Positions 1 to 17,315 of a DNA stretch of 17,325 nt are shown piece after piece. This DNA is from Atribacterota bacterium (GTDB lineage: Bacteria > Atribacterota > Phoenicimicrobiia > Phoenicimicrobiales > Phoenicimicrobiaceae), in the NCBI GenBank assembly GCA_038203565.1, contig JBBRDV010000028.1, positions 1 through 17,325 of the forward strand, given 5' to 3'. The stretch's first letter is position 1. Each line of letters begins with the position of its first letter. The position numbers and the translations under genes are program-made. The notes under the pieces were generated by a model. The model did not search any database and had not been told where the DNA came from. It saw only the letters and a list, made by a program, of their open reading frames with translations.

Positions 1-591
1 AATCACTAACTGCTCCCGCGATATACCGGGCATTTCAAAATCTAAGAACGATTTTCCCATAAAAAAATCTGCGGGTATGCCTAATAGACGCTCAACCGTC
101 TCATTACAGTAAATATGCTGCAGGTTGCTATTGAAACGCACGATCATATCAGGGGAATTTTGAATCAGTTTAGAAATTAACCTTTCGCTCTTCCGCAGCG
201 CCTCCTCCGCCTTCTTGCGCTCGGTGATATCACGGAAGACCATGGCGAAATAGCCGGGCTGGTCGCTGTAGACAGTTATTTCGTACCAGCGATCTTGCTG
301 GTTAAGGTACTGTTGAAAACGAATGCTCTGACCGGGTTCAATAGCTGTTACTCGATCGAAGACGCCGATCCAATCAAAGCTTAAGTCCTCAATTCCCGGA
401 CGTACTTCTTTCAACTTTTTACCAATAATATGGTCTCTTGGAAGCCCGGTCAGGGCCTCAAAGGATGAGTTGATCTCTAAGAAGATATAATCCACCGGTT
501 TTCCGGTGTTATCCCGGACCATTTTACAATAAGCTAATCCATCAGGTAGATTCTTTATCAGTAAGCGATATTTGTCTTTTCCTTGAATCAT
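1..591 (-). CDS. PAS-domain signalling protein, partial (N-terminal 197 codons; runs off the window's left edge)
   Basis: Not in the ORF track because it has no stop in the window. Manual translation from ATG at 591 (GAGG RBS upstream): MIQGKDKYRLLIKNLPDG...VFRDITERKKAEEALRKSERLISKLIQNSPDMIVRFNSNLQHIYCNETVERLLGIPADFFMGK. This is one complete PAS/PAC plus the start of a second PAS. Confidence 0.88.
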   Translation of the reverse strand, partial: MIQGKDKYRLLIKNLPDGLAYCKMVRDNTGKPVDYIFLEINSSFEALTGLPRDHIIGKKLKEVRPGIEDLSFDWIGVFDRVTAIEPGQSIRFQQYLNQQDRWYEITVYSDQPGYFAMVFRDITERKKAEEALRKSERLISKLIQNSPDMIVRFNSNLQHIYCNETVERLLGIPADFFMGKSFLDFEMPGISREQLVI

Positions 592-2655: not shown

Positions 2656-3945
2656 TTAAACTGTTTTGTAATCTGCTTTTTTTAACCTGACTTCCAATAT
2701 ATTATTTTTATACCTCTTGGTAAAACTATTGGTATTAACCACTACGGGAAGAGAAATTTCTTGATGATAATCTTTATCTGCATCAATAATAAGTTTATTA
2801 TTCGCCACACTTAACCGTAACTTATCTTCTTTAATACCCAACAGCTCTAAATAGACTATTAGTTCAGCGTCCTCATCAAATATGTCCAGAAGTGGTTCCT
2901 CTCTCTCTTGATGAGGCTGACCGGCGAGCCACCAACTAAAGGTAACTTTCTCGCCAGTTTCCCGGTCAACTTTTGAACTCTCGAATAAGAGTATAGGATA
3001 GCCGATTATCTTTTCAGCGGTGGGATTTATAATCTCCCTTATTTTAAGTAAAATATCCATATGGGTAGGAGCCTCTATGAGCTTGGCTAAGGTGTCGATC
3101 CTGGCGTGTCTGTTCTCATAAAGACACATAAGTATCTCTTTTGAATCGGCATCCAATTCGGTAATAATTTTATTTAAGGTCTCCCGGTCTACTTTTAGTA
3201 ATATTCTCTGATATAGTTCTTTTCTCCAGGTCTCTAAATTAAGTGATATAATCCATGCTTTTGATAATTCACCAGAAGATTCACATACTACACAGATAGT
3301 ATCACTTTGACTAACTCCGTAAACCCTTTTTTCTATTCTTAAATCCTTTATACTGCTGAGTGGTGTCTCCCATACAAATCCCGATTTATAGGTAAAAAAA
3401 GTGAGTTTCTTAGAGGTAAGAAGAAGAGTTCCCAGCCACCACCTTGATTGACCGGGAGTTAAATAACCACCCTTTTCCTTTAAAATTACTTCATCAGATT
3501 GCGCGTTAGAGGCTGTGGGCTGTGGATCAGAAGAGGTAGATTGTGACTCCGGCGTCCTCTCCTCAATTGCCTTTTTCCAATTCTCAGGATCTTTTATGGC
3601 AATATAGGGCACTCTCCTGCCTTCAGATACTATATTAAGTTGTTTTACTTTCTTGCCCAAAATCCATTCCCTCTTTACTATATTTATAGTCTTTATTTGA
3701 CTGAGTAGAACCTTGAATAGTATCTTTCTTCCCTGAACAAAAAGCAGTCTTTTATTGGTAAAGTATAAATTACCCAGTCTCCAAGATGAAGCAAGTGAAC
3801 TCCCGATATCGTAGCTTGCCGTATAATACTTAATCACTTCCTCGCCCGGTAGTAAAGGTAAACTAACTGGTTTTCTTATAGTATCTAAATCTCTTCTCAT
3901 ATTAAGATTACTTTCCTCTTTTACTTCCTGTGCTCTCTCTCGCAA
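2656..3945 (-). CDS. Multidomain protein: two PH/GRAM-like domains, a winged-helix-like domain and a C-terminal Hsp20/alpha-crystallin domain
   Basis: WRLGNLYFTNKRLLF and WWLGTLLLTSKKLTF fit the G-x-L-x-L-T-x-x-R-L-x-F GRAM/bPH signature. LDADSKEILMCLYENRHARIDTLAKLI is HTH-like. EPLLDIFDE...ELLGIKED...EISLP...YKNNILEVRLKK is an alpha-crystallin domain. Start is uncertain (TTG 3945 or ATG 3900). Confidence 0.75.
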   Translation of the reverse strand: MRERAQEVKEESNLNMRRDLDTIRKPVSLPLLPGEEVIKYYTASYDIGSSLASSWRLGNLYFTNKRLLFVQGRKILFKVLLSQIKTINIVKREWILGKKVKQLNIVSEGRRVPYIAIKDPENWKKAIEERTPESQSTSSDPQPTASNAQSDEVILKEKGGYLTPGQSRWWLGTLLLTSKKLTFFTYKSGFVWETPLSSIKDLRIEKRVYGVSQSDTICVVCESSGELSKAWIISLNLETWRKELYQRILLKVDRETLNKIITELDADSKEILMCLYENRHARIDTLAKLIEAPTHMDILLKIREIINPTAEKIIGYPILLFESSKVDRETGEKVTFSWWLAGQPHQEREEPLLDIFDEDAELIVYLELLGIKEDKLRLSVANNKLIIDADKDYHQEISLPVVVNTNSFTKRYKNNILEVRLKKADYKTV

Positions 3946-3969
3946 TTGATAATCCCTAATTCCTCATTT

Positions 3970-4593
3970 TCAATGGTTATTCCTCTCTTGAAACTGTGCT
4001 ATAGTTTCCAATATCTTTTCCTCAGTAAACGGCTTGTCAATGAAACCGTGAACCCCCTCCTGATTATTCGCTTCTGCCCTTTTTTCTTCACTGCCGTAAG
4101 CGGAAATCATGACTACTAATGCCTGCGGGGCTGCCGCTTTTATTTCGGGAAGCATATCCATTCCATTCCCGTCAGGTAACTTTAGGTCTAATAATACCAA
4201 ATTGGGCACCTTCTTCTTTAAACAGGCTATGCCTTTAATTATGCTATGGGCAACTGATACATTATATCCTTTGTTTTGTAAGGTATTGGTTAAGAGCCAG
4301 CACAAGTCTTTTTCGTCATCCACGATCAAAACATTCTTTATCTGCCTTTTGGGGTGCGGGATCGGCCTTAGTTCTTCCTTTTTCCTTCTTAATCGTGCCT
4401 GTTCCCTCTGTTCAAAAAAGGGTATCAGCTCTTCAAGTTCTTCGGGTTTGCGCCAGCCCGAAAGACCGCTTCTCCATACCAGTGCTTCGTCTGGTTTGAT
4501 AATACCATTTAAAATCCAGCTTTTCAGCTTGGAGTGATAGATTGATCTGTAGGTATCCGCCCCTCTTCTCACATCGTATTTTAGCTCTGACAT
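3970..4593 (-). CDS. Response regulator: N-terminal GYF_2/DUF4339-like domain and C-terminal receiver domain
   Basis: Receiver motifs VLIVDDE, LVLLD(phospho-acceptor)LKLPDGNG, MISAYG, FIDKPF. The N-terminus LKSWILNGIIKPDEALVWRSGLSGWRKPEELEEL fits the GYF_2 pattern. AGGAGAGG RBS. Confidence 0.85.
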   Translation of the reverse strand: MSELKYDVRRGADTYRSIYHSKLKSWILNGIIKPDEALVWRSGLSGWRKPEELEELIPFFEQREQARLRRKKEELRPIPHPKRQIKNVLIVDDEKDLCWLLTNTLQNKGYNVSVAHSIIKGIACLKKKVPNLVLLDLKLPDGNGMDMLPEIKAAAPQALVVMISAYGSEEKRAEANNQEGVHGFIDKPFTEEKILETIAQFQERNNH

Positions 4594-4611
4594 AACCTCT
4601 CCTTTTGGATT

Positions 4612-4703
4612 GAAGTCAGAAAACAGAGGTCAGAGGTCAGAGGTCAGAAATCAGAATTTTCTGTCTTCTGTTTTCTGTAATCTGTCTTCTGTCTTCTGAC
4701 TTC
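4612..4703. repeat. Inverted heptamer-array palindrome, copy A
   Basis: Six NNNCAGA units (aagtcaga aaacaga ggtcaga x3 aatcaga), then attt, then six TCTGNNN units ending tctgacttc. Forms a long imperfect hairpin. Confidence 0.9.
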
Positions 4704-5428
4704 TATTTTATGGGCAAAAATATAGTAAAGACAGAACCCCTTTTCCAAATGCTTTCTACACTTATTTCCCCGCCGTGACTTACCACAATCCCGTAAACTA
4801 TGGATAGACCCAGGCCTACTCCCATTCGCTTAGTGCTAAAAAAAGGATCAAATATCCTGATAATATCTTCTTCGGGGATACCTACCCCGGTATCTTGAAT
4901 CTTCACCACCATAAAGTCCCCTTCAATACTGGTATTGATGGTCATTGTGCCGCCTTTAAGCATGGCCTCAACAGAATTAATTACCACGTTCAAGAATACC
5001 CGGTTGATATGTTCCTTATCCACATTTATTATTGACGGCTTAGCGTCATATTTTTTAATCACCTTTATCCATTGTGTGGAAAGACTGCTCCTTATCGAAT
5101 CCAAAACGTTTTCTATAATCCCATGCATCTCATGGGGACGGATGTTAAGTTCCGGTGGTCGGGCACAGTTGAGGAGTTCGGTGATCAAAAAGTTAATCCT
5201 CTCCGTGTTTCTAATAATAACTTCAATATGTTTGGACCAGGGGCTATCTTCGCTATAGGCCTTCTTAAGCTGCTGGGCCGCTAAAGACACGTTGCCAAGC
5301 GGATTTCTTATCTCATGAGCTATACTGGCAGCTATTCTACCGGTAAAGGCAAGCCTTTCGGATAAAACCGATTCTTTGCCTTGATTGCCAACTCCTTCAT
5401 AAGAATCTTCACCTCTTGATCCGGACAT
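4703..5428 (-). CDS. Histidine kinase (HisKA + HATPase_c) with no sensor or transmembrane region
   Basis: H-box IAHEIRNPL, N-box FLNVVINSVEAM, G1 DTGVGI, F-box IFDPFFST, G2 GVGLGLSI. Only about 25 aa precede the HisKA helix. GGGAG RBS before the ATG. Confidence 0.92.
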   Translation of the reverse strand: MSGSRGEDSYEGVGNQGKESVLSERLAFTGRIAASIAHEIRNPLGNVSLAAQQLKKAYSEDSPWSKHIEVIIRNTERINFLITELLNCARPPELNIRPHEMHGIIENVLDSIRSSLSTQWIKVIKKYDAKPSIINVDKEHINRVFLNVVINSVEAMLKGGTMTINTSIEGDFMVVKIQDTGVGIPEEDIIRIFDPFFSTKRMGVGLGLSIVYGIVVSHGGEISVESIWKRGSVFTIFLPIK

Positions 5429-5445
5429 AATATTACTCCCTTCTT

Positions 5446-5531
5446 AATCAGAGGACAGAAGTCAGAAGTCATAATTTTCTGTCTTCTGTTATCTGTTTTC
5501 TGTCTTCTGTTATCTGTTTTCAGAAGACAGA
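5446..5531. repeat. Inverted heptamer-array palindrome, copy B
   Basis: aatcaga ggacaga agtcaga agtcata attt tctgtct tctgtta tctgttt tctgtct tctgtta tctgttt, then cagaagacaga overlapping the upstream gene's stop codon. Confidence 0.88.
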
Positions 5532-6284
5532 TGTTAAATTATTATTTCTTCTGTTTTCTGTCATCTTTTTTAGTCTCGGGCTAACCGGGCTAACCCAGCC
5601 GCAGCTTGAGCAGCCTTCTTCTAATAGTTCTTTTGCCAGGGCGGGTTTGCCGCACTGGGGACAGGTTTCGGTTTCCTCACTTTCAAACTCCGGAAGTATA
5701 AGGCTGGCCTCTAAAGAAAGTCCCATAGTTGCTAAATTTTGCTCAATAGCATCTTTTAACTGATTTATTTCTACTGCACTAAGCCGATGCACTTGATCCT
5801 GTTTATCTATAAGATAAAGTACCTGTTTTTTCTTTCCTTTAACCAAATGCGCCTCCTCTCTCGCTACCAATGCCTTTATTTCTTCTAATAGTGTCTGAAA
5901 GGTGATTTCATCAAAATCTTGACGGTAAAGAATAAGCCTTTTATTAGTTAAATAAAAATAGCCTGGTCTCCAGGCATTACATATCCCTTTACTATAGTAA
6001 TAAGAACCATACATTTTCAGGGTAATTTCTTCTCCTTCAACTAAAGAAAGGACATTTTTCTTCCGATGTTCTCTTTCCCAAGCCCTACTTTTTTCATCCC
6101 AGGCCTGCATCACCCCATATTTCAGCATTGTCTCCATTCCCGCCAATGCTGCCCTTAAATTGACACCGATTAAAGGAATGCCAGCCACTGAAATAATAAT
6201 ATCTGCATTAATTACCAATCCTTTATCTAAAATTCGATCTAACAGATCTACTAAAGTTGCGTGTGTATCTCTTGATGGTTCCAT
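5520..6284 (-). CDS. gvpJ: GvpA/GvpJ-family gas vesicle protein fused to a PH/GRAM-like domain and a C4 zinc ribbon
   Basis: N-terminal TLVDLLDRILDKGLVINADIIISVAGIPLIGVNLRAALAGMET is the GvpA/J/M signature. Central WRPGYFYLTNKRLILY. C-terminal CPQC-x13-CSSC. AAGGAGG RBS. Confidence 0.8.
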   Translation of the reverse strand: MEPSRDTHATLVDLLDRILDKGLVINADIIISVAGIPLIGVNLRAALAGMETMLKYGVMQAWDEKSRAWEREHRKKNVLSLVEGEEITLKMYGSYYYSKGICNAWRPGYFYLTNKRLILYRQDFDEITFQTLLEEIKALVAREEAHLVKGKKKQVLYLIDKQDQVHRLSAVEINQLKDAIEQNLATMGLSLEASLILPEFESEETETCPQCGKPALAKELLEEGCSSCGWVSPVSPRLKKMTENRRNNNLTSVF

Positions 6285-6329
6285 CTTTCCTCCTTCGCTT
6301 CCACTCAGTCGGTGGTTTACAGTTTACCC

Positions 6330-6351
6330 GTCCCTCGCTTTTGCTCGGGAC
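6330..6351. repeat. Short REP-like imperfect palindrome
   Basis: gtccc-tc-gc-tttt-gc-tc-gggac: a stem with a central TC/TC mismatch, in the intergenic region. Confidence 0.5.
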
Positions 6352-6394
6352 TGTTTACGATTTGTGGTTTCTTGCCGTAAACCCTCATTCGTCG

Positions 6395-7159
6395 TTAGAC
6401 GAATGAGTACGGTGGCCAGGGACCGGTAAAACGAACAAAAAATCCTTTTAGATGGTCAATTTTCTCTAGTTCTTCACCCAGTATTTTACTCTTTCCCTTA
6501 AAAAGCAAACAAGAGAGATTCAACAGCATTTGTTTATCTTCTTCAAGTTTTTTGGTCTTTTCTACTTTAATTTGGTCGACACACCTTTTAATCTGCTCAT
6601 AAAAATCTTTAAAATATCTATCTGCTTCTTTTTCTATCTCTTTTTTTAATAAGTTCTCTAATTTCTGCTTATACATATAAGCTAAGCCCCTTGATTTGGA
6701 TTTTATCTCCTCACTCAATTTCTTAATCTCAGAGTTTGTCTCAATGAGCCCTTCGCTGATAGTTTTGGGGTCCCAAAATACCTGCACTCCAAACTCAGCT
6801 CTGTCTTTGAGCTTAGCCAGTTTTTGTTTTAAGTTTTCGTAATCACCCTTTAACCACTTCTTTATGTTCTCATCGGGGACAACACCCTCTTCACCCTTAA
6901 TGATGGTATCAAATCCCAGGGGTAAAACCGTGCCAAATCTTTCCCAGGCAATCTCCACAACTTTCGCGTGAGTAGTTAACCATAATTTAACCTTTTCCTG
7001 GTCATCTGATTTATATGGTTCTGATAGACAATTATGAACTACAGCACTTAAATCTTGATAGGGGATAGTGTAAACGCTACTACCCTCTATTCCAATATTA
7101 CCAAGGGTTATCTTTTCATTCCCCTCGACTATACAATAAAGATATCTTGCTTCAGCCAT
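6395..7159 (-). CDS. gvpL: GvpL/GvpF family gas vesicle protein
   Basis: RYLYCIV, DLSAVVH, H.KVVE, TVLPLGFDTII, EFGVQVFW, LLNLSCLL, FTGPWPPYSFV. Confidence 0.9.
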   Translation of the reverse strand: MAEARYLYCIVEGNEKITLGNIGIEGSSVYTIPYQDLSAVVHNCLSEPYKSDDQEKVKLWLTTHAKVVEIAWERFGTVLPLGFDTIIKGEEGVVPDENIKKWLKGDYENLKQKLAKLKDRAEFGVQVFWDPKTISEGLIETNSEIKKLSEEIKSKSRGLAYMYKQKLENLLKKEIEKEADRYFKDFYEQIKRCVDQIKVEKTKKLEEDKQMLLNLSCLLFKGKSKILGEELEKIDHLKGFFVRFTGPWPPYSFV

Positions 7160-7160
7160 T

Positions 7161-7484
7161 TTAAATTCCTTTCTCCTCCGCCTCTTTCTTCCACCTTTCG
7201 GGATTTATCATCTTGTCTAATACCTCATCCACAATGCTATCCAGCCCATCTCTTACGGATTTAACTGATTCAGTAACACCCTGTTCCTTTTTTATCTCTT
7301 CAATAGCAACATCTAAATCCATAAGGGCTTCCCCGAGTCTCTCCATCTCCTCCTCAGATAAACTGCCTCCCTCCATACGCTTCATTGCCTGGAGGTTAAG
7401 AGCATCTTTAATTATTTCTACTAAGGCAATGACTAAACCTAAAACCCCGTGTTTTAGATTGTCGGTATCAATATCGATTGACAT
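7161..7484 (-). CDS. gvpK: Gas vesicle protein GvpK
   Basis: GVLGLVIALVEIIKDALNLQAMKRMEGGSLSEEEMERLGEALMDL is the GvpK signature. AGGAG RBS. Confidence 0.9.
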   Translation of the reverse strand: MSIDIDTDNLKHGVLGLVIALVEIIKDALNLQAMKRMEGGSLSEEEMERLGEALMDLDVAIEEIKKEQGVTESVKSVRDGLDSIVDEVLDKMINPERWKKEAEEKGI

Positions 7485-7497
7485 CTTTCGCTCCTTT

Positions 7498-7584
7498 AAT
7501 CAGAGGTCAGAAGACAGAAGTCAGAGGACAGAGGTCAGAAGACAGAATTCTCTGTATTCTGTTTTCTGTTTTCTGTTTTCTGTT
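7498..7584. repeat. Inverted heptamer-array palindrome, copy C
   Basis: aatcaga ggtcaga agacaga agtcaga ggacaga ggtcaga agacaga attc tctgtat tctgttt x3 tctgtt. Confidence 0.9.
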
Positions 7585-7942
7585 ATCGCGTCTCCGACTT
7601 GAGTGCCTTGGCTTTGGTGGCAGGTAACCAGCCACACCAAGGACACCCGGTATTTATAAGTTCTTCTGCCGGTACTCGTTTGTTACATTGTGGACATTCT
7701 TCTTTGCCTACCATAGCCTCTTTCCAAGCTACAGTCTGGTAATTGGTACCAGATGGAAACTCCAAACCATATTTGGCAGCAGTCTCAAACGAAGCCAATG
7801 CTGCCCGAATCTTGATACCCAAAAGCTCCACCCCAGCAACAGATATAATGATATCGGCATTTATCACCAGACCTTTATCCAAGATACGGTCTATGACATC
7901 AACTAAAGTACCACTTGTATCCCTTGTCGCCTCCATGACCAT
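7583..7942 (-). CDS. gvpJ: GvpA/GvpJ-family gas vesicle protein with a C-terminal C4 zinc ribbon
   Basis: TLVDVIDRILDKGLVINADIIISVAGVELLGIKIRAALASFETAAKYGLEFPSG is GvpJ-like. C-terminal CPQC-x13-CPWC. Start moved to ATG 7942, 6 nt after AAGGAGG. Confidence 0.88.
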   Translation of the reverse strand: MVMEATRDTSGTLVDVIDRILDKGLVINADIIISVAGVELLGIKIRAALASFETAAKYGLEFPSGTNYQTVAWKEAMVGKEECPQCNKRVPAEELINTGCPWCGWLPATKAKALKSETR

Positions 7943-7997: not shown

Positions 7998-8261
7998 TTA
8001 CTCTTTTTCCATTAAATCCATACGCCTACGCATGGACTTTCGCTCAAAATTCAAAAGGTTTCCATCTTCATCAAGAAGAACTTCATATAAAGCTAAAATA
8101 TCCATCTGATCGGGAATAGAACGTTTCTCTACCATTTCAATAGATATATTCCATCCCTTTTCATCCTTGGTAACCCCTACAGTAGAAGAAGCGGTCAGCC
8201 CGGTCAATTTATTTAACTCCCTACGTGCCTTTTCAATTAAAGTTCCTAATTCCTTTGCCAT
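7998..8261 (-). CDS. gvpO: Gas vesicle protein GvpO (GvpR-like)
   Basis: GWNISIEMVEKRSIPDQMDILALYEVLLDEDGNLLNFERK fits the GvpO motif. Confidence 0.9.
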   Translation of the reverse strand: MAKELGTLIEKARRELNKLTGLTASSTVGVTKDEKGWNISIEMVEKRSIPDQMDILALYEVLLDEDGNLLNFERKSMRRRMDLMEKE

Positions 8262-8263
8262 TT

Positions 8264-8500
8264 TTATTCCTCCGTTTTTTTAATTTCTTTTAACCTTTGT
8301 ATTAATTCTTTTTCTATCTGAAGGTAATCCTTTTCACTGATCTTACCTTCATCTAAGAGCAGTTGAAACTCCTTAAGTTTTTCCATAACTCCTGCTTTGG
8401 TTATCAGTCGCTCTTTATCAACTTCATTTATTATCCCCTCAAGTACCTTTTTTGCCAAATTGAAGGGCAACAACAATAAATCATCAATAATAAAAGCCAT
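8264..8500 (-). CDS. gvpG: Gas vesicle protein GvpG
   Basis: FIIDDLLLLP...LKEFQLLLDEGKISEKDYLQIEKELIQRL. Follows gvpF as in known clusters. Confidence 0.88.
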   Translation of the reverse strand: MAFIIDDLLLLPFNLAKKVLEGIINEVDKERLITKAGVMEKLKEFQLLLDEGKISEKDYLQIEKELIQRLKEIKKTEE

Positions 8501-8514
8501 TTTTTATGCCCCCC

Positions 8515-9258
8515 TTAAAATCCTTTTAATTTTATATTAACGAAATTATAAGGTGGAACAGGACCGACATACTTAAACTTCAATTTATTCTCATATTTTT
8601 GGGCTAATTCGTTCACTCTTTTATCAAAATCTTTTTCTTTATTTTTATCCACTAAGAAAGAGGAGTTAAGGAGCATTTTGATACCTATGGGCTGATTAAG
8701 ACGGCTATCGGTAGCTATTTCCTGAAGAGAACTATAAATATTTTGGACATATTTCTTTTTCCATTCCGTAACTATGGATTCAACTAATTTACCTACCTTA
8801 AGCTTGGAGCTTTGATCTTCCTTTACTGAAGAGTCAACTATTTTCTTCTTGTATTCTTGAAAATCTTTACCTCTACTCTCCATCTCTTTAACTACAGCCT
8901 CCTCTATCCAGAGAACTTTTACTCCTAACTCTATTTTACCCTTAAGCATTTTTAATTCCCGCTTAAATTCTAAATAGTTTTGTCTTAAAAGTTCGGCTAC
9001 TTTCTCCTCATTCTCAGCAATAATTCCGAAACTCATTGGAAGAATAAGATGTTCCTTCACGATTTCTTCAAGAACATGGGTATGAGCTAAAAGATTCTCT
9101 CTGGTAGGGTCGTATTCTATAACCTCTGCCTCACTGAGCACTGCAGCTAAATCCTGATAATTAAATGAATATACTTTCTTTCCATCAATTCCGGTAAAAC
9201 TAAATTCTTTTATTTTTAGTTCTTCTATAAAACCATAGATATATCTACCTACTGGCAT
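8515..9258 (-). CDS. gvpF: GvpF/GvpL family gas vesicle protein
   Basis: GRYIYGFI, PTRENLLAHTHVLE, ILPMSFG, GKIELGVKVLW, MLLNSSFLVD, YVGPVPPYNFV. Start moved to ATG 9258 (AGGAG RBS; aligns with paralogue N-termini). The ATG at 9333 lies inside a palindromic repeat. Confidence 0.9.
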   Translation of the reverse strand: MPVGRYIYGFIEELKIKEFSFTGIDGKKVYSFNYQDLAAVLSEAEVIEYDPTRENLLAHTHVLEEIVKEHLILPMSFGIIAENEEKVAELLRQNYLEFKRELKMLKGKIELGVKVLWIEEAVVKEMESRGKDFQEYKKKIVDSSVKEDQSSKLKVGKLVESIVTEWKKKYVQNIYSSLQEIATDSRLNQPIGIKMLLNSSFLVDKNKEKDFDKRVNELAQKYENKLKFKYVGPVPPYNFVNIKLKGF

Positions 9259-9327
9259 TATCCTTCTCCTTGTCTTTCTTTTTACTTCTCTAGTAGTTCG
9301 TTTTCTAAATATCTTTACATTTTGTTC

Positions 9328-9409
9328 TGTCATTGCGAGGAACGAAGTGACGAAGCAATCCCATGATTTGTAAGGACTTGAGATTGCTTCTCTATCGCTC
9401 GCAATGACA
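9328..9409. repeat. REP/RPE-like palindromic element
   Basis: Perfect 12-bp terminal IR TGTCATTGCGAG...CTCGCAATGACA plus inner IR GAAGCAATC (9352-9360) / GATTGCTTC (9382-9390). Confidence 0.88.
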
Positions 9410-9448
9410 AATTATTGTAACATTATTAAGCAAACGCTCTACTAGACT

Positions 9449-11605
9449 TTATTCTAAATGAGCTTTCAGTGACTTAATTGCTTCTTTAAAGTGCTTTAGG
9501 GAAATCTTAAAGGTGGCGGCATCCTCATTCTTCTTCTCTTTCTTTCCAGCCTTTTTTTTAATAAATTCCCTAATTGCTGCCATAGAAGCCTCCCTACAAA
9601 TAGCCTCAATATCCGCCCCGGTTAAGCCTTCTGTCTCTTCAGCCAAAACAGAAGGGTTCACCTCATCAGGCAGAGGTTTCCCTTGCAGGTGAACCTGAAA
9701 AATCTTCTCCCGACTCTTTTTATCTGGGATCGGAACTTCTAAAATCAAATCAAATCTACCCGCTCGCAGAATAGCCGGATCGATTAATTCTTTTCTATTA
9801 GTAGCTGCTAAAACTATAACACCTTTAAGTTCCTCGATCCCGTCCAGTTCAGTTAGAAATTGGCTAATTACCCTTTCCGTTACCTGAGAATCCCCACTTA
9901 TTCCCCGTTGGGGAACTATGGAATCAATTTCATCAAAAAATAGAATGATAGGAGCAGCTTGCTTTGCCTTACGAAAGAGCTCCCTTACCCCCCGCTCTGA
10001 CTCTCCAATATATTTTGAGATAAGTTCGGGTCCTTTCACCGAGATAAAATTGACCTCACTTTCATTGGCCAAAGCTTTAGCCATCAAAGTCTTTCCCGTC
10101 CCTGGAGGTCCAGATAACAGAATACCTTTTGGTGGTTTAGTATGGGTGTAATCGAATAAATCAGGATATTCTAAGGGCCATTCCACTACTTCGGTCAAAG
10201 TTTCTTTAATCTCTTCCAGTCCACCCACATCATCCCATTTCACATTGGGAATTTCCACAAAGACCTCTCTAATTGCCGAGGGCTCCACCTCTTTCAAGGC
10301 TGCCCTAAAGTTCTCCATAGTAACCTCTAATTCTAAAAGCATTTTATAAGGGATCTCATCTAATTCAAAATCGATATTAGGCAAGATAGTTCGCAAGGAA
10401 TTCATAGCGGCTTCTCGGCATAAAGCTTCTAAGTCAGCTCCTACAAAACCATGGGTAATTTGAGATATTTTTTCTAAATCTACATCTTTAGCTAAAGGCA
10501 TCCCCCGGGTATGAATATGCAAAATTTCCAGACGAGCCTTTTGATCAGGGATACGTATGGAAATCTCCCGATCAAATCTTCCTGGTCTTCTTAAAGCCGG
10601 ATCAAGAACATTGGGAATATTGGTAGCTCCAATAACAATCACTTCACCTCGAGATTCCAATCCATCCATCAGGGCTAATAGTTGAGCCACTACCCTTTTT
10701 TCTACCTGTTTCTCTCCCCCCATCTCTTCCCGCTTGGGAGCAATAGAATCAATCTCATCGATGAAGATGATAGAAGGGGCATTAGCCTGAGCTTCCTCAA
10801 ATACACTGCGCAGACGAGCTTCGCTTTCTCCGTAGAATTTTCCCATAATTTCGGGGCCGCTTATATGGCTAAAATGGGCAACTGTCTCCTGGGCAACTGC
10901 CCGGGCGATCAAAGTCTTTCCACATCCTGGAGGACCATAAAGTAAAACCCCCTTGGGGGGTTGAATACCTAATCTTTCAAAAACTTGAGGGTATTTTAGA
11001 GGAAGTTCGATCATCTCCCTAATTCTTTGAATTTCTTTACCTAATCCACCAATATCTTCATAAGATATCTTTAACTGTTTTCCGGTTACCTCTTTCTCTT
11101 CTTTCATCTTGATGGTAGTACCAGTATGGATAAAAACTGGTTGTTTAGCCGGAATAGTGGAAATCACCACAAAATCAAAGCTCCGTGCACCAAAAAGATT
11201 GGCTCTTATTCTATCCCCCTCTACTAAAGGTAGGCCTTCTAACAGACTACCTAAATATTTAGTATCCTCAGCCCCCCGCATAGACTTCATTAGAGCTAAG
11301 GGGGATAGGACTATCTTATCGGCTAATTTACATTCACATTTTTGAATGCTTACTTTTTCATCTAATCCTGCCTGGGTGTTTTCTCTTAATAAGCCATCCA
11401 TTTGAATAATCCCCTTTCCTCTATCTTCCGGATAGGCAGGCATAATTTTGGCTACTGACTTTCTTTTACCATATACTTCTATTATATCCCCTACTTCTAT
11501 ACCTATTTTTTGGAAATCTGCAGGGTCTATTCTAACTATTGCTCTTCCTACATCTTTGGCTTTTGCTTCTGAAACTTTTAGGGTTAATTCTTTATTTTTA
11601 GTCAT
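9449..11605 (-). CDS. cdc48: CDC48/VCP(VAT)-family double AAA+ ATPase
   Basis: N-domain ([20 protein letters not shown]). D1 [28 protein letters not shown]2 [23 protein letters not shown]. Confidence 0.95.
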
Positions 11606-11608
11606 ACT

Positions 11609-12184
11609 TTACTCCCTATTCTTATAAATTAAGTAGTCAATCTTAATATCCTTAAGTAAATATTTATATACTTTATGTTCACTACCTATAAATAAAATCC
11701 CAATTTCATCTTTTCTCAAAGTGTTATTTATCCTATTTGCTATGTAACGATCTCTTCTTATAAGTAACTGCTTATTTTCTTCTTTGTATTCCTTTTTAGA
11801 AGAAATAGTTGTTATATTTTTAATATTATTATACTCCTCTAAGAGGAGCTCTTTACTCTCTGTCCCCTCCAATTTAGCCCCTTTATTAATTAATTCTAAA
11901 ATTATCTTATAATTTATACTACCTCTTTCAGCTAATTTTTGGACTATATCTAACTCTTTTTCACAGAGAGGCAATCCATCCTGATATATCCTTACTTTTT
12001 CATAAGTTAATTTTAAACCATTAATTTTAGTTTTTATCCACTGCCAGATTTCTTTTATTAATTTAAGGTGTTCTTCCCATTTTTCTTCTCCAAACTTTAA
12101 TATATATTCCTCTTTTAACCAAAGAGCTACTGAACCCATTTCAAGCTCAGAATGAATTACTGGAATATATATCAGTCTTCTCAA
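11609..12184 (-). CDS. Hypothetical gvp-cluster protein, possibly TraB/ChaN/EreA-like fold
   Basis: TTG start with AGGAGG RBS and tight packing with neighbours. Motifs YIPVIH, IYQDG, RRDRYIANRI, GILFIGSEH. Confidence 0.75.
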   Translation of the reverse strand: MRRLIYIPVIHSELEMGSVALWLKEEYILKFGEEKWEEHLKLIKEIWQWIKTKINGLKLTYEKVRIYQDGLPLCEKELDIVQKLAERGSINYKIILELINKGAKLEGTESKELLLEEYNNIKNITTISSKKEYKEENKQLLIRRDRYIANRINNTLRKDEIGILFIGSEHKVYKYLLKDIKIDYLIYKNRE

Positions 12185-12198
12185 TTTTTCCTCCTGGC

Positions 12199-12729
12199 TT
12201 AAATTTTCTCCAATTTTAGCTCTAACATTCCATTTTTATAAGAAGATTTCATACTTTCTTTCTTTACCTGGGAAGGAAGCAAAACCTCCTTGGCATATTT
12301 TCTTTCTTTATTTTCTGCAGATAGTTTAAGAATATCTCCTTCTAAGTTAATCTTAATATTATCTTCAGAAACTCCAGGCAGCTCAACAATGACTAAAATA
12401 TGATCCTTTTCATTAAATACATCGACTATTGGTTCTCTAACTTCTTCTACCACCGGACCTTTGGCCGTTTTCTTCATATTACCAAAGGTATCGACAATAG
12501 GTTTTCCTCCGGCTAAAGTCCTGATGCTAAAACCATAAATACCTTTTGCCTCTTTAGGTAACCCTTTAATTTCACCAACTTTTTTAATTTCTCCGGCTTC
12601 TTTAGTTACCTTGTCTGCCAGGTTAATCAAGTCACTAATTCCCTTAAATATTCCTCCTAATTTCACTTTTCCCATATCAAAGTCAAATTCTAAGCCTTCT
12701 TTTTCTTCCTTTTTTCCTTTTTCGACCAT
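12199..12729 (-). CDS. Hsp20/alpha-crystallin small heat shock protein (GvpH-like, archaeal-type Hsp20)
   Basis: IYGFSIR...FGN...VEEVREPIVDVFNEKDHILVIVELPGVSEDNI...YAKEVLLP...YKNGMLELKLEK. Confidence 0.9.
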   Translation of the reverse strand: MVEKGKKEEKEGLEFDFDMGKVKLGGIFKGISDLINLADKVTKEAGEIKKVGEIKGLPKEAKGIYGFSIRTLAGGKPIVDTFGNMKKTAKGPVVEEVREPIVDVFNEKDHILVIVELPGVSEDNIKINLEGDILKLSAENKERKYAKEVLLPSQVKKESMKSSYKNGMLELKLEKI

Positions 12730-12749
12730 TTTTTTAACTCCTTTTCGCT

Positions 12750-13499
12750 TTATTTTAGGTTTAAATTTACAAAATTATAGGGTGGGGTTGGCCCAATATA
12801 CTTAAATATCACTCTTGGGGAATACTTGGATACTAATTCATGTACCTGATTATCAAATTCCCTTTCTCGGGCTCTATCCACTAAAAAAACAGTATTTATT
12901 AGCATTTCATCACCTTCCGTTTCATTGAGGTGAAAATTATAAGAGATTCTTTTTAAAACATTTATTATTTCCTTACCTTCCTTATCCCTTTTCACCTCTA
13001 AAGCTGTCTTTACTATTTTTCCTAATTTTATCACATCTTTATAACTTTCTTTAAGAGATTTTTTAGCTATTTTTTCCTTGAGAGACTTAATCTTTTTGTC
13101 TTCATCTACTATCTCCTGAAAAATAACTTTCATCTCTTTCCAGAAAGCCTTTACTCCTAACTCTATCTTATTATCCATATCCTTTAATAAGCTTTTTAGT
13201 TCCAAATATCTTTTTCTTAAAAGACCTCGAACTTCCTCAGCACTACTTGCCACGGTGCAAAATCTCATCGGAAGAACGGTATAATTCTTCATCACCTCTT
13301 CAACAACTTTTTCATGAGCAATTAAATTTTCTTTGTTTATCACATATTTATGTAAGGGGGAGTTGCTAATGACTGCACTGAGATCCTCATAGCCAATGGT
13401 AGATACTATATCTCCTCTTTCACCAATTCCTATGGGGCCAAAGTTTCTTCCCTCATTAGTACCGATGATACAATAAATATATTTACCTTCTTCTACCAT
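12750..13499 (-). CDS. gvpF: GvpF/GvpL family gas vesicle protein
   Basis: GKYIYCII, DLSAVIS, ENLIAHEKVVE, TVLPMRFCT, KIELGVKAFW, YIGPTPPYNFV. Confidence 0.9.
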   Translation of the reverse strand: MVEEGKYIYCIIGTNEGRNFGPIGIGERGDIVSTIGYEDLSAVISNSPLHKYVINKENLIAHEKVVEEVMKNYTVLPMRFCTVASSAEEVRGLLRKRYLELKSLLKDMDNKIELGVKAFWKEMKVIFQEIVDEDKKIKSLKEKIAKKSLKESYKDVIKLGKIVKTALEVKRDKEGKEIINVLKRISYNFHLNETEGDEMLINTVFLVDRAREREFDNQVHELVSKYSPRVIFKYIGPTPPYNFVNLNLK

Positions 13500-13885
13500 T
13501 TTATTTTCTCCTTCCGATGCATCATTTCTTGTTCTAAAGAGAAAATATAACTACGAGGTGACCTTCTTCTCCTTATTTTAGCCCATTCTCGGGCCATTAT
13601 GCTCCGAGCAAGAACTCCCAGGGAAGCCCCATTCAAACTTTTTGGTTTTCCTTCCTCATTCTTTTTTTGAAATTCGGTCATTCCCTGCTCTAACCAATTC
13701 ACTATTCCCTTATCCCTTAGTTTTATTTCCTTATATTCTTTTAAATTAATATTTAATATTTCAAAAAATGAATCTTCTATTTTCATAATTAGCCAGAAGG
13801 CTTTCCCCCTATCTCTGCAAGAATCAGCAGAATCTAAAATGGTAGTTATAGTATATAGTATTACTTGATTAGCAGTGTTTATCAA
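13493..13885 (-). CDS. Hypothetical protein
   Basis: 130-aa ORF filling the gap between gvpN and gvpF and overlapping both (17 bp and 7 bp). No recognised motif; start uncertain. Confidence 0.5.
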   Translation of the reverse strand: MINTANQVILYTITTILDSADSCRDRGKAFWLIMKIEDSFFEILNINLKEYKEIKLRDKGIVNWLEQGMTEFQKKNEEGKPKSLNGASLGVLARSIMAREWAKIRRRRSPRSYIFSLEQEMMHRKEKIKW

Positions 13886-14786
13886 TCAGAACCTGTACTA
13901 AATTTTTAACTTTTGCTTGATTAATACTGCTCCCGATACGACTGGTCTCCGAGGCTAAAATATCCTGGCAAATTTCTCTAAAAATCTTATTCTTAGCATT
14001 TACCAAACCACCTAAAGTGCTTAAGCTTTTAGCAATCATAATACAACCTCGAATAGTAGGCCTAAATTCACATTCTTCGGAAATCCGAAGGCCTCTTACA
14101 ATATCTACAATTTTTGCTGCATCATTAAAAGATAGATTAGACTTACCCTGGGTAATAGCAATCTCTGTATCTCTATCGAAATAATCTAAATCCATAGTAA
14201 TCATTCTATCCCTCAGGGCATCTTGACTTCGGTGAACACCAGCATACTCTTCCGGATTACTGGTAAAGATGGCTATAAAATCAGGGTGAACCTTTAAATA
14301 ATCACCACCTCCCCGAGCAGAGGGTAAACCCATCATTTTTTCTTGTAGAATGGAAAGTAGGACATTATTGGCTTCCGGGCGAGAACGAGTGAATTCATCA
14401 TAAATAAGGATAAGTCCATGCTCAACTGCCACAGTCAAACGATTGTCTACCCAGCTTTTCTGAACATCTTCCTCAGCTTTCATCACCGAATGAATAAAAT
14501 TGTCCACCACTCTCCTGGTGCGATAACCCTGCTCTCCCCCCACTAAATCGGAGGTAGTAAATTCCTCATCTCCATGAATCATAACCACCGGTCGGTCAAT
14601 TATACTGGCTAAATGCAGGGCAAGAGTAGTTTTCCCTGTTCCCGAAGGTCCCCGGAAATGAAGAGGAAAACCAGCTTTAATATACCCTAAAGCTCGCACC
14701 GTTACCTCCTTTACAAACTTGGTTTCCACAAAATTTGGCAGCGCACGAGCTTTCAAAACAGTTGTACCTTTGGTTACCATAATCAT
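13869..14786 (-). CDS. gvpN: Gas vesicle AAA+ ATPase GvpN
   Basis: HFRGPSGTGKT, VVDNFIHSVMK, WVDNRLT, LIYDEFTRSRPEANNVLL, FTSNPEEYAGVHRSQDALRDR. Confidence 0.96.
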   Translation of the reverse strand: MIMVTKGTTVLKARALPNFVETKFVKEVTVRALGYIKAGFPLHFRGPSGTGKTTLALHLASIIDRPVVMIHGDEEFTTSDLVGGEQGYRTRRVVDNFIHSVMKAEEDVQKSWVDNRLTVAVEHGLILIYDEFTRSRPEANNVLLSILQEKMMGLPSARGGGDYLKVHPDFIAIFTSNPEEYAGVHRSQDALRDRMITMDLDYFDRDTEIAITQGKSNLSFNDAAKIVDIVRGLRISEECEFRPTIRGCIMIAKSLSTLGGLVNAKNKIFREICQDILASETSRIGSSINQAKVKNLVQVLIDKHC

Positions 14787-14801
14787 TAATCACCTCTCTG
14801 C

Positions 14802-15200
14802 TTAAAAATCAATCTTTAATTCTTTAAAATTCGAAGGTTTAAAATTCCGGTTAATCTTTTGAGGGGAAGAATGATCTTTTTTCCAACTCCCCTTTTGTAA
14901 TTTTTGTCTTAATTCTATAATCTGTTTATTTTTATTCACGGTCTTGGCTAATTTATCCCTGATTTTTAGGATTTTTTCTTGAGATTTTTTTATAGCCAAA
15001 TCTTGCTGGGCAAATCTTTGTATGTCTTTTTGAATTGTTTGACTTAATTCCTGATCATCTATCAGTGATTCAAGAATCTTTTGCTCTTTTTTGCTTCTGC
15101 ATATAGAATTGGTAGTTCGAATCTTACGTTCGTTTCTATTTTCTAAACCGGTTTTAAAATCTCGAAATGTTTTTATAGCCACTAAACTTTCGTGCTTCAT
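14802..15200 (-). CDS. Basic coiled-coil hypothetical protein (possibly GvpV-like)
   Basis: AGGAGG RBS, adjacent to gvpN, central heptad-like helix and a short hydrophobic C-terminal tail (FKELKIDF). Confidence 0.7.
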   Translation of the reverse strand: MKHESLVAIKTFRDFKTGLENRNERKIRTTNSICRSKKEQKILESLIDDQELSQTIQKDIQRFAQQDLAIKKSQEKILKIRDKLAKTVNKNKQIIELRQKLQKGSWKKDHSSPQKINRNFKPSNFKELKIDF

Positions 15201-15238
15201 ATACCCCTCCTTTATTCGCCTTGCTTATCCAGTTTTTC

Positions 15239-16126
15239 CTATATCATAGGATAATATAAATTCTCTTCTTTTCGGATTTTATTTTCTTCCATAAGTTCCT
15301 TAACGGTTATTATATACCATCTCCAATCTTTTCCCAGCACGGCACCAATTTCAGCAAGCTTTATCCCCTGGGGATGTTTTATAATCAAGTCTAAGGTTTG
15401 TTGTTTTTCGCTCAAATTTTCCTTAATTTTGTTTTGTTCTGGCTTAGGAAGCTCTTTATTTACTATCTTTTTTTCTCGTACCACCGAGAGAGGCTTTACT
15501 CCACTTCTCTTTTCTTGCAGGGTAGAAGCCGTTTGCTGCCAGGACAATGATACCTTCTCTAATTCAGCTCTTAGCTTATCCTGGGTACTGCGAAAATCGT
15601 TCAACATTCCACTTACTTTACTTTTCATCCCCTGATTAAACTTGTTTAAATCATTCTTTAACTCTTTACTCATCTGGCTGTGTGAGACTTTAAAGTCATC
15701 CAAGGTCTTGCTTACCTCTTCTTTTCTATTCTCTACACCTTTAGCTAAATTTTTTCTCTGTTCAAGACTCATTTCTTGTTGGGTGCTATGAAAATCGTTC
15801 AACATTCCACTTACTTTACTTTTCATCCCCTGATTAAACTTATTTAAATCATTCTTTAACTCTTTACTCATCTGGCTGTGTGAGACTTTGAAGTCATCTA
15901 TCATCTTCTGAGTATCCTCTTCGAGATTCTCTTTGTATTTAGATAAATTTTCTCTTTGTTCAAGACTCATTTTTTTATGAACATTTTGAAAATTCTTTAA
16001 CAGATCTCGACTACTCTTTAATGCCTCTTCTGTTTCTTTTTTTATCTGTCCGATCTTTTCTACCCTTACATCATAGGAACCTATAATATCTGCACCTAAT
16101 TTTTCCATCTCTTCTTTAATTCTCAT
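15239..16126 (-). CDS. gvpC: GvpC-like protein with about five 33-aa helical repeats and a C-terminal winged-helix-like domain
   Basis: Exact 33-residue periodicity (LLKNF.., MIDDF.., MLNDF.., TLDDF.., MLNDF..) and position between gvpA and gvpN. C-terminal LDLIIKHPQGIKLAEIGAVLGKDW...VKELMEENKIRKEENLYYP. Confidence 0.72.
   Translation of the reverse strand: MRIKEEMEKLGADIIGSYDVRVEKIGQIKKETEEALKSSRDLLKNFQNVHKKMSLEQRENLSKYKENLEEDTQKMIDDFKVSHSQMSKELKNDLNKFNQGMKSKVSGMLNDFHSTQQEMSLEQRKNLAKGVENRKEEVSKTLDDFKVSHSQMSKELKNDLNKFNQGMKSKVSGMLNDFRSTQDKLRAELEKVSLSWQQTASTLQEKRSGVKPLSVVREKKIVNKELPKPEQNKIKENLSEKQQTLDLIIKHPQGIKLAEIGAVLGKDWRWYIITVKELMEENKIRKEENLYYPMI
15592..15898. repeat. Intragenic 109-bp direct repeat with 198-bp period
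   Basis: 15592-15700 versus 15790-15898; two mismatches seen by eye. Confidence 0.92.
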
Positions 16127-16176
16127 TTTTTTATTTCTCCTTTATTATTAGACTTAACTTAAATTTTTAAAACTCT

Positions 16177-16953
16177 TTACTTTTTATCCTCTTTTTCTTT
16201 AAGGATAGAAACTAAATCATTCTGATAAGTTTTTGCCCCCTCCAAATTGGAAATAATTTTTGTCTGTAGACGAAAACCAGCCAAGGTCTCTCGAACTTTT
16301 TTCCTTTCCTCTTGCCAGAGAGCTTTTCTTCCCCTCTGTTGAACTTGAATCTCTGAAATTGCTATTTTAAAATCCCTTATTCTTAAAGAGTTTCCTTTAC
16401 TTAAGAGGTCTCTTAAAGTTTGAGACATCAGCATCTGTTCAGCTCTATAAACTTCCAATTCTTTCCGAAAACTCTCTAACATTTTCCTAACTTCTTCCCC
16501 TCTTTTCTCTTGTTGGGTTTGAAGGTCTTTTAAAAAAATCTTAAAATCACTTAATCTATTAGATTCATTCTCTTTAAGATGGTCAGTGGACCTAGCCAAT
16601 CTTTCTCTTAAAGTAGTCGCAATATCTTTCTGCTTATCAAGATAACCTCTTAATTCTTCTCTAATTATATGCTGGTTTTTCTCAATTTCTTCCTTTCGAT
16701 TAGTTATTCCTCCCGATATTTTCTCTATCATCTGGTCAAAATCTTTTCTTCTTAGATGCTGTTGATTAGTTAAGGCCTCTCGCAGTTGTGCGTTTATTTT
16801 CTCCCTATCTTCCTTAGATTGTACTATATCATTTTGATATTCTTCTAACACCTGATAGGTATTCTCGATAATAGTTCTCACCTCAGAAATTCCATTATCA
16901 TAAGAAGTAACTATATCTTTTAATATTTTTTTCATCTGATCAACTCTCACCAT
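16177..16953 (-). CDS. Coiled-coil hypothetical protein with three internal repeats; N-terminus resembles the GvpC-like protein
   Basis: DQMKKILKDIVTSYDNGISEVRTIIENT aligns with EEMEKLGADIIGSYDVRVEKIGQIKKET. Repeats LREAL..LRRKDF, LRERL..RLSDF, LRDLL..LRIRDF. Start uncertain (TTG 16959, ATG 16953 or ATG 16935). Confidence 0.75.
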   Translation of the reverse strand: MVRVDQMKKILKDIVTSYDNGISEVRTIIENTYQVLEEYQNDIVQSKEDREKINAQLREALTNQQHLRRKDFDQMIEKISGGITNRKEEIEKNQHIIREELRGYLDKQKDIATTLRERLARSTDHLKENESNRLSDFKIFLKDLQTQQEKRGEEVRKMLESFRKELEVYRAEQMLMSQTLRDLLSKGNSLRIRDFKIAISEIQVQQRGRKALWQEERKKVRETLAGFRLQTKIISNLEGAKTYQNDLVSILKEKEDKK

Positions 16954-16993
16954 TTTCAAAAAACTTTATAATTCTAAAACCAATAACTAAATC

Positions 16994-17080
16994 AAAAAAA
17001 TGGGAATCTTGGCGGAATTTACTCGTTTAAATACCCTTAAATACCCTAAGTTTTTTGAGGATATTTCGGCAAAATTCCCC
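16994..17080 (-). terminator. Stem-loop plus U-tract downstream of gvpA (terminator or mRNA-stabilising hairpin)
   Basis: Minus-strand arms GGGAATTTTGCCGAAAT (17079-17063) and ATTCCGCCAAGATTCCC (17018-17002), followed by A then T7. Confidence 0.6.
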
Positions 17081-17108
17081 CCTAAGTTAGTTTAACTTAA
17101 ATAGGATC

Positions 17109-17315
17109 CTATGCTGCGGTTGCAGTAAGGCCTATTGCCTCTGCATACTTTAAGTAAGTCTCAACAGATGCAATCACTACTCTTGCTTCAATTGCTAATA
17201 ATTCGATACCTACTAAGGACACTCTGACCCAAGCATCGATTACTATACCTTTGTCCAATATTCTGTCTACAACTTCTACTAAACTTGAAGATGCCATTGA
17301 TTTTTCTACTGCCAT
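17109..17315 (-). CDS. gvpA: Major gas vesicle structural protein GvpA
   Basis: [64 protein letters not shown] is canonical GvpA. Confidence 0.98.

Follow-up and report, generated by a model that had tools for sequence, protein, structure and literature searches.

What are PH domains, a histidine kinase without a sensor and a second small heat-shock protein doing at the end of a gas-vesicle operon? The question is raised by the window, the 17,325-nt stretch of DNA analysed here, which is the whole of contig C28 of a 1.97-Mb metagenome-assembled genome (35% GC) from an Atribacterota bacterium, an uncultured anaerobe whose closest named homologues are likewise Atribacterota. Twenty co-oriented genes run along the minus strand from gvpA (17109-17315) to position 2656 with intergenic gaps of -17 to 149 bp, and profile matches place gvpA, gvpN, gvpO, gvpG, gvpK, two gvpF, gvpL, J- and M-type genes, Hsp20 and CDC48 among them. 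With gvpA and the essential accessory set (F/L, G, J, K, M/S, N and O) within one locus, the array is a gas-vesicle cluster, and its gene content predicts vesicle production in the lineage, which the Atribacter literature consulted does not report. A first-pass annotation had drawn attention to the last seven genes (2656-7942; Table 1), all of which we found in place and co-oriented, and had proposed that they may act as one module, its PH domains being docking sites for proteins of chaperone and signalling function. Our answer is that the locus is a variant of the gas-vesicle cluster, not a new kind of system, and that the module is real and conserved but modular, not one obligate unit. The explanation that we prefer for the whole, and give about an even chance, is a PH-tailed seeding complex served by a dedicated chaperone adaptor, with phosphorelay tuning as an option.

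The PH domains carry this answer. The motif W-x-x-G-x-[LF]-x-[LF]-T-x-K-[RK]-L occurs exactly three times in the six-frame translated genome, each time within the 2656-7942 block and divided between a shell paralogue and a chaperone, just as had been noticed from the letters; it did not appear in any of 20,000 shuffles of 4,579 cluster residues. All three domains adopt the PH-superfamily fold, a seven-stranded sandwich with a C-terminal capping helix, and the fold suggested earlier was borne out by AlphaFold 2 (AF2) models and structure search (VIA Z 12-13, rmsd 2.0-2.5). The PH domain of the protein encoded at 5520-6284 reaches a VIA Z of 13.1 to 4tyz (rmsd 2.0, 101 aligned) and 12.8 to the TAPP1 PH domain, and for the model of the 2656-3945 protein (pLDDT 86) the highest Z to a PH domain is 12.8 (rmsd 2.4, 91 aligned). 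The PH domains of the two proteins are homologous to each other (HHalign 98%, E 1.5e-13). In a quick tree, built from the 113 of 227 PH rows kept after removal at ≥85% identity and leaving out loci L149-L181, they sort by position into four groups, and every group includes several phyla (SH-aLRT 99 for GvpM PH1, 96 for GvpM PH2, 98 for Hsp20-fusion PH2, and 94 for Hsp20-fusion PH1 together with stand-alone PH genes from other clusters).

The shell paralogue that bears one of these domains had been labelled a GvpJ, a name that needs correcting. The 5520-6284 protein is closest to GvpM (NF046091, 98.5 bits against a cut-off of 109; 56.5 bits for GvpJ, also below its cut-off; 45 for GvpA), and its gene comes after gvpK-gvpL. 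At 254 aa, with a PH domain and a zinc ribbon, it exceeds a short GvpM (~70-100 aa, no extra folded domain) and is a fusion variant, whose N-terminal shell domain AF2 modelled at low confidence. Since most of the GvpM homologues listed are longer and carry two motifs (112/120 are at least 300 aa and 94/120 have both), we take the protein of the window to be an in-frame, one-PH variant that has lost its second PH domain. An assembly error was considered and rejected, as the same one-PH form is found in independent proteins and recurs in several subclades (P0136, P0146, P0181). The GvpJ-type gene at 7583-7942, whose zinc ribbon gives weak profile matches, has orthologues in other clusters and is 62% identical to one in Streptomyces. 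There, on plasmid NZ_CP027299.1 (L198:14001-16594), and on an actinomycete chromosome of 71% GC (L204:9275-12150), gvpJ-Zn, gvpM-PH(-PH), gvpK and gvpL form a stand-alone block that has no Hsp20 fusion or kinase nearby and no gvpA alongside. The plasmid has no other A-family gene, and its quartet sits after a gene for a B12-binding domain. As a lead only, the ESM Atlas holds auto-named clusters with the GvpM-PH-PH architecture, including a mostly Actinomycetota cluster of 66 members at 0.79. Four Desulfobacterota clusters (L182-L185) have a short GvpM in the order J-K-L-M-DnaK, followed by a plain Hsp20 or ending before it, and no PH or winged-helix domain was seen in them.

A vesicle is started by a complex of GvpJ, GvpK, GvpL and GvpM/S, of which GvpM/S and GvpJ may remain at the vesicle tips (PMC11445434, PMC9501494). 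In this lineage, the cytoplasm-facing tail of GvpM bears a zinc ribbon together with a single PH domain or a pair of them. Because the block is the seeding quartet plus tails, we interpret the PH/zinc tail as a platform on the seed to which proteins would bind. The tail probably also helps to keep the hydrophobic core of GvpM soluble.

The chaperone of the module is the last gene of the array. Its likely start is the ATG at 3900 (Met16, ≥90% conserved), and its AF2 model shows a pair of PH folds followed by a helical, hairpin-bearing domain and then by an alpha-crystallin domain, the last of which is well marked (NF041800, 1e-18; 4rzk, rmsd 1.9, 34% identity). Tandem-PH BBS5, CheF (7ovp) and the alpha-crystallin domain of Sulfolobus Hsp20.1 were among the best Foldseek matches. 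In most relatives, the PH-winged-helix-Hsp20 gene directly follows a private DnaK. A DnaK gene lies upstream of the forms with one PH domain in 27/33 loci and of the two-PH fusions in none of 13 loci with at least 2.5 kb upstream, and in locus L048 the order is short GvpM, stand-alone PH, DnaK and PH-winged-helix-Hsp20. Since the two-PH forms occur without DnaK, their PH1 groups with stand-alone PH genes in the tree and L048 shows the separate genes in order, the PH-PH form of the window probably arose by fusion of a stand-alone PH gene after loss of DnaK. A further chaperone element is found in GvpF proteins of at least 320 aa, which have a C-terminal HPD (J-domain-like) segment in 28/28 loci having one (e.g., L027:2331, L095:1567); 18 of these loci also hold DnaK, and 10 show none in the fetched DNA. 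The window has neither a long HPD GvpF nor DnaK. Linkage of this kind suggests that the protein, whose alpha-crystallin domain predicts holdase activity, would act as a small-heat-shock adaptor dedicated to the cluster, holding aggregation-prone A, J and M subunits as the holdase part of an Hsp20/Hsp70/CDC48 kit. A chaperone beside seed proteins has a precedent in halobacterial GvpH, which prevents aggregation of GvpM (PMC9501494).

How firmly are these genes tied to gas vesicles? A scan of GTDB genomes for the Hsp20 fusion gave 30 loci in ~12 phylum-level groups (two loci from one genome), and 26 of the 30 lie in gvp-bearing genomes: for 19 a gvp gene is within the fetched DNA, and 7 of the remaining 11 genomes have gas-vesicle family genes. 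The other four comprise two broken remnants (L041, L051), one 1.0-Mb assembly and one gene at a contig start. Among 401 Desulfobacterota genomes, with up to five candidates scored per genome, 34 have A-family matches and six GvpM-PH; the winged-helix domain was found in four (three with GvpM-PH, one a broken remnant), and strong matches to the GYF region of the receiver protein described below in three, all beside GvpM-PH. Occurrence is patchy among relatives, with the gas-vesicle family in 8/41 genomes and the GYF region in 3/86. The tight linkage to gvp clusters foreseen by the first-pass annotation was thus found, and homologues do not sit mostly outside such clusters, save for a PH-less, HTH-bearing subfamily of unseen context. 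We give about an even chance to the view that these loci are a type of gas-vesicle operon of its own, spread by horizontal transfer, in which a seeding-and-proteostasis end is joined by an optional signalling add-on.

Several observations weigh against the seed-platform and adaptor explanation. Three loci pair PH-winged-helix-Hsp20 with a GvpM lacking PH, and L045 pairs GvpM-PH with a PH-less winged-helix-Hsp20. The actinomycete quartet has no Hsp20 fusion nearby. Of 149 distant representatives, 68 match the winged-helix part only, and in an HTH-winged-helix-Hsp20 subfamily of 230-300 aa (P0412, P0418, P0423, P0425, P0426, P0430, P0431, P0446, P0501, P0503; one named Thermoplasmatota) an N-terminal HTH replaces the PH domain. 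The loci were found via module genes, so that co-occurrence counts are not those of a random sample, and the 80 kinase-receiver loci discussed next reduce to 62, 48 and only 17 groups at 95, 90 and 80% identity.

The remaining two genes of the module encode a kinase and a receiver protein. They were surveyed in metagenomes through the receiver, and the counts given here refer to the best 80 of 129 confirmed loci, which are unclassified. The kinase gene lies directly upstream of the receiver gene in 72/72 loci with at least 300 bp upstream; where at least 1.5 kb is available, a gvp gene precedes in 52/52 and GvpM in 51/52. A winged-helix-Hsp20 gene follows in 22/24 loci with at least 4.5 kb downstream, and the very next gene is DnaK in 34/55 and a PH gene in 16/55. 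With intact H, N, G and F boxes, the receiver Asp and Lys, and adjacent genes, the two proteins form a two-component pair. The kinase is 240-275 aa long in 59/60 homologues that start inside a contig, so we regard it as sensorless by design; the same uniform length led us to reject a truncated remnant. In the receiver protein, the GYF_2 domain is a candidate: 32/33 aligned members of the family match the profile at E ≤ 0.01 (best 7.9e-5), the domain cross-matches two bona fide GYF_2 domains, and the copy in the window falls below the Pfam cut-off of PF14237 (20.4 versus 25.8 bits). By name or handle, the pair was seen solely in Atribacterota and Desulfobacterota.

What such a pair could regulate is suggested by the DNA upstream of gvpA. 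Contig C4 shares 119 identical bp with the end of the window and thus provides this region (L001:6927-9893), which carries a PAS histidine kinase and an NtrC-type sigma-54 activator. A perfect sigma-54 motif, TGGCAC-N5-TTGC, lies 107 bp upstream of gvpA and is one of five such matches genome-wide; rpoN is present in the genome, and a perfect 15-bp inverted repeat is found at L001:9611-9644. The motif is not universal: a strict match occurs in 7/37 windows upstream of other gvpA genes, and none in L026 and L028. Two close relatives have the motif in front of a small single-REC gene that itself comes before gvpA and is absent here. Sigma-70 promoters and terminators between 2400 and 9600 were no more frequent than chance predicts (18 versus 18.2 and 4 versus 5.5 expected), and therefore we claim no internal promoter or terminator. 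Metatranscriptome contigs from related strains (four runs, small shares) cover the module as well as a neighbouring non-cluster gene, and one of them spans the kinase and receiver genes; such contigs tell neither transcription, strand nor level and were not used as evidence. We infer co-transcription of the array. The kinase and GYF-receiver would be a cognate pair, probably expressed from the sigma-54 promoter upstream of gvpA. Lacking both a sensor and a DNA-binding output, the pair must act through protein contacts, most likely by tuning the PAS-kinase/NtrC phosphorelay or by binding a proline-rich protein of the cluster. It would be an optional branch, as the PH module also exists without it.

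A stronger role for the pair was implied by the idea of a single module: the PH domains of GvpM would be a docking site for the Hsp20 fusion as well as for the kinase and GYF-receiver, and the kinase would read assembly state or vesicle position into a phosphorelay, much as CheF links CheY-P to the archaellum. The constancy of the sensorless kinase and its place after GvpM agree with this. CheF, which the fusion protein matches by Foldseek and weakly by Pfam, is an archaeal tandem-PH adaptor whose PH domains are proposed to be protein-interaction platforms on a macromolecular machine and which is linked to a phosphorylated receiver (PMC9126983), and the ZnR-GYF of Myxococcus GltJ is a bacterial GYF without the G-Y-F residues that binds a proline-rich segment of a receiver-domain protein (PMC11135422). 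However, CheY is bound by the tail of CheF and not by its PH domains (PMC9126983). The kinase pair is moreover present in just 2 of the 30 GTDB loci, GvpM in others being followed directly by the Hsp20 fusion or DnaK, and in three of the six GvpM-PH genomes of Desulfobacterota, whose contigs are fragmentary; GvpM-PH-PH persists in actinomycetes with gvpJ, gvpK and gvpL alone. The single module is thus not supported as proposed, and we consider joint docking doubtful. About as doubtful is its most elaborate form, in which a eukaryote-like PH/zinc-ribbon scaffold at the seed, or tip, would recruit the PH-winged-helix-Hsp20 adaptor and allosterically control the sensorless kinase, so that the organelle would signal its own state of assembly to a phosphorelay acting back on the sigma-54 operon. 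If true, it would amount to an assembly checkpoint for gas vesicles in anaerobes not known to float.

The PH domains of GvpM might instead bind anionic membrane lipids or a cytoskeletal or ATPase system (volactin-type actin, ArsA/GET3) and so fix the seeding site or bundle vesicles. Their closest Pfam and structure matches are GRAM, GLUE and PH domains, with two-PH GvpM homologues matching the Vps36, GRAM, PH and bPH_3 families; related clusters carry volactin (by Pfam in L037 and L043, by BLAST in L049) and ArsA-family ATPases, and a tail working without the Hsp20 fusion would fit the actinomycete quartet. Against this, the array of the window has neither volactin nor ArsA, and a shared fold shows no ligand, the top structure scores being tied across lipid-binding and protein-binding PH domains. 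We regard positioning as unlikely, while noting that every binding event assigned here to a PH domain is an inference.

Quite improbable, in our view, is a DNA-binding role in which PH-winged-helix-Hsp20 would exert feedback regulation, its alpha-crystallin domain detecting Gvp proteins left unassembled. The wHTH named in the first-pass annotation is consistent with the order of helices and strands in the full-protein AF2 model, although matches to DeoR and MarR are weak (3 and 2 of 20 members) and a PDB profile search with the alignment of this domain gave a best E of 0.59; the ESM Atlas returned one unnamed, uninformative cluster at 0.76. The relatives with an extra N-terminal HTH would suit a regulator. 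The conserved residues of the winged helix are mostly His, Asp, Asn, Trp and hydrophobic, not basic, the operon already has a sigma-54/NtrC system, and the gene sits beside DnaK in most relatives, all of which speak against it. Least credible of all is that the PH, kinase and GYF genes are mere passengers on a mobile gvp island with no role in vesicles: tails do tolerate deletion and fusion, the C-terminus of GvpM being dispensable (PMC9501494) and GvpS accepting fusions (PMC11445434), PH2 has been lost repeatedly, and spacers take up unrelated four-helix and nuclease genes, but ~12 phyla retain the gene order and the four PH lineages, and of the four copies from genomes in which no gvp gene was detected, two are broken.

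The proposed PH-tailed seed with its chaperone adaptor matters since seeding is the least understood step of gas-vesicle assembly (PMC11445434), and the layout could show how gas vesicles start and are controlled. A natural folded tail on GvpM offers a handle to localise the seed, pull down partners and engineer the vesicles used as ultrasound reporters, and because a cultured Streptomyces carries the gvpJ-M(PH-PH)-K-L block by itself, experiments on the tail need not wait for an uncultured host. Other gains are prokaryotic PH domains placed in a defined organelle context, a conserved kinase without a sensor, and a suggestion that anaerobes of sediment and deep water, Atribacterota among them, possess buoyancy organelles. 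In line with the first-pass annotation, the portions of the literature searched describe no PH module and no PH or GYF_2 domain in characterised gvp clusters, although supplements and surveys such as the 2023 genome-mining study cited in PMC11445434 could hold these genes.

Table 1. Features of the gas-vesicle array in the window, from the seven genes of the module to the rest of the array.
Feature	Position	Strand	Basis
GvpJ-type shell paralogue with C-terminal C4 zinc ribbon (CxxC..CxxC)	7583-7942	minus	119 aa from ATG 7942; PF00741 8e-17; NF046090 halo GvpJ 99.5 bits
GvpK	7161-7484	minus	PF05121 5.6e-19
GvpL	6395-7159	minus	PF06386 2.9e-64; NF045778 GvpL 192.9 bits versus cut-off 200
GvpM-type shell paralogue (aa 1-67), PH (aa ~76-188, nt ~5721-6059) and C4 zinc ribbon (aa ~205-232)	5520-6284	minus	NF046091 98.5 bits; AF2 and VIA
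Sensorless histidine kinase, HisKA and HATPase_c	4703-5428	minus	H-, N-, G1-, F- and G2-box residues present
GYF_2-like domain (aa ~1-60), Pro-containing linker and receiver (REC)	3970-4593	minus	Acid pair, Asp, Ser and Lys present; no DNA-binding output domain
PH1 (nt ~3550-3861), PH2 (~3196-3504), winged-helix-like (~2920-3195) and alpha-crystallin/Hsp20 (~2671-2913)	2656-3945	minus	AF2, Foldseek, VIA; winged helix by topology and weak Pfam
Upstream part of array: gvpA, 260-aa coiled-coil ORF, GvpC-like repeat protein, 132-aa ORF, gvpN, 130-aa ORF, gvpF, Hsp20 (GvpH-like), 191-aa ORF, CDC48 (GvpZ-like), gvpF, gvpG, gvpO	7998-17315	minus	GvpC, GvpH and GvpZ labels are a reading, with no database match
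Inverted heptamer-repeat hairpins in three spacers	4594-4702, 5429-5519, 7485-7582	minus	z -5.5, -3.3, -3.9

The hairpin spacers look like empty cassette sites, because in relatives the spacers of the cluster are occupied by PF05635 four-helix genes or by genes for PDDEXK_3 nucleases (L027:5552, L069:7540, L116:1054). Between gvpF and cdc48, at 9325-9400, lies a short palindromic element (z -3.2) with loose-ended matches on many unrelated contigs, probably a small dispersed repeat. Directly downstream of the array, on the same strand, positions 1-2565 hold a PAS-PAS-GAF-HD-GYP gene followed by the start of a near-duplicate PAS gene, a neighbour that is not kept in related loci. The GvpC-like repeat protein (15239-16126) ends in ~55 residues that look winged-helix-like by eye and have no Pfam match, and small winged-helix-like genes recur between gvpO and gvpF in relatives. 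Larger accessory blocks stand beside the PH-winged-helix-Hsp20 gene in four loci (L037:10394-17503, L043:79-9480, L049:9778-12950, L038:1-9944) and include volactin-family actin, ArsA/GET3 ATPases, TPR, B12-radical SAM, DnaJ zinc-finger, AbrB-like and proline-tyrosine-lysine repeat proteins.

Set against known systems, the PH domains have their best Pfam and structure matches in the eukaryotic GLUE/GRAM/BBS5 group (Vps36, myotubularin, BBS5), and Vps36 has a similar parts list of PH, zinc finger and winged helix. At 5-21% identity, this is a match of fold alone, with no evidence of orthology or a shared ligand. CheF is likewise a prokaryotic tandem-PH protein (7ovp, Foldseek E 2e-5 with the 2656-3945 protein), whereas identity is 13%, the Pfam match is below cut-off and the window contains no che genes; in place of a CheY-binding tail in a che/arl context, the protein here ends in a winged-helix-like and an alpha-crystallin domain in a gvp context. 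GltJ resembles the receiver protein in its N-terminal GYF without the G-Y-F residues, a domain that zinc ribbons often accompany (PMC11135422). Here, by contrast, the fusion partner of the GYF domain is a soluble receiver instead of a membrane receptor, and the zinc ribbons belong to Gvp proteins encoded by other genes.

Among gas-vesicle clusters, gvpFGHIJKLM of Halobacterium salinarum and the GvpS/J/K/L genes of Priestia (Bacillus) megaterium share the J-K-L-M order and the N-terminal domains of the GvpM and GvpJ types; two-component genes are not described for them in the parts of the literature consulted. Halobacterial GvpM is 84 aa long (PMC9501494), and haloarchaeal proteins among the 25 plasmid matches listed cover only residues 1-77 of the GvpM of the window (1-112 in one). 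The array holds further parts with counterparts in Serratia sp., in which GvpH is an Hsp20, GvpZ an AAA ATPase, GvrB a PAS kinase and GvrC a single receiver. We rejected an equation of the kinase pair with GvrB/GvrC: the kinase lacks a sensor, a GYF domain accompanies the receiver, and separate PAS-kinase, NtrC and single-receiver genes coexist with the pair (L052 with L068, L097, L101, L107), which makes the pair additional to regulators of the Serratia type. In Serratia, a sigma-54 site upstream of gvpA1 is under the NtrC-like GvrA and extra regulators lie inside the locus (PMC4982088). Serratia and the present cluster thus resemble each other in the sigma-54/NtrC-like control of gvpA, several GvpF/L and A-family paralogues, GvpH and GvpZ genes, and regulators in the locus (PMC4982088). 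By its description, the Serratia cluster differs from the present one in three ways: the latter adds a sensorless kinase and a GYF-receiver to the PAS-kinase/NtrC/(REC) set, its GvpM and GvpJ have PH/zinc tails, and one of its two Hsp20 proteins is joined to PH and winged-helix domains.

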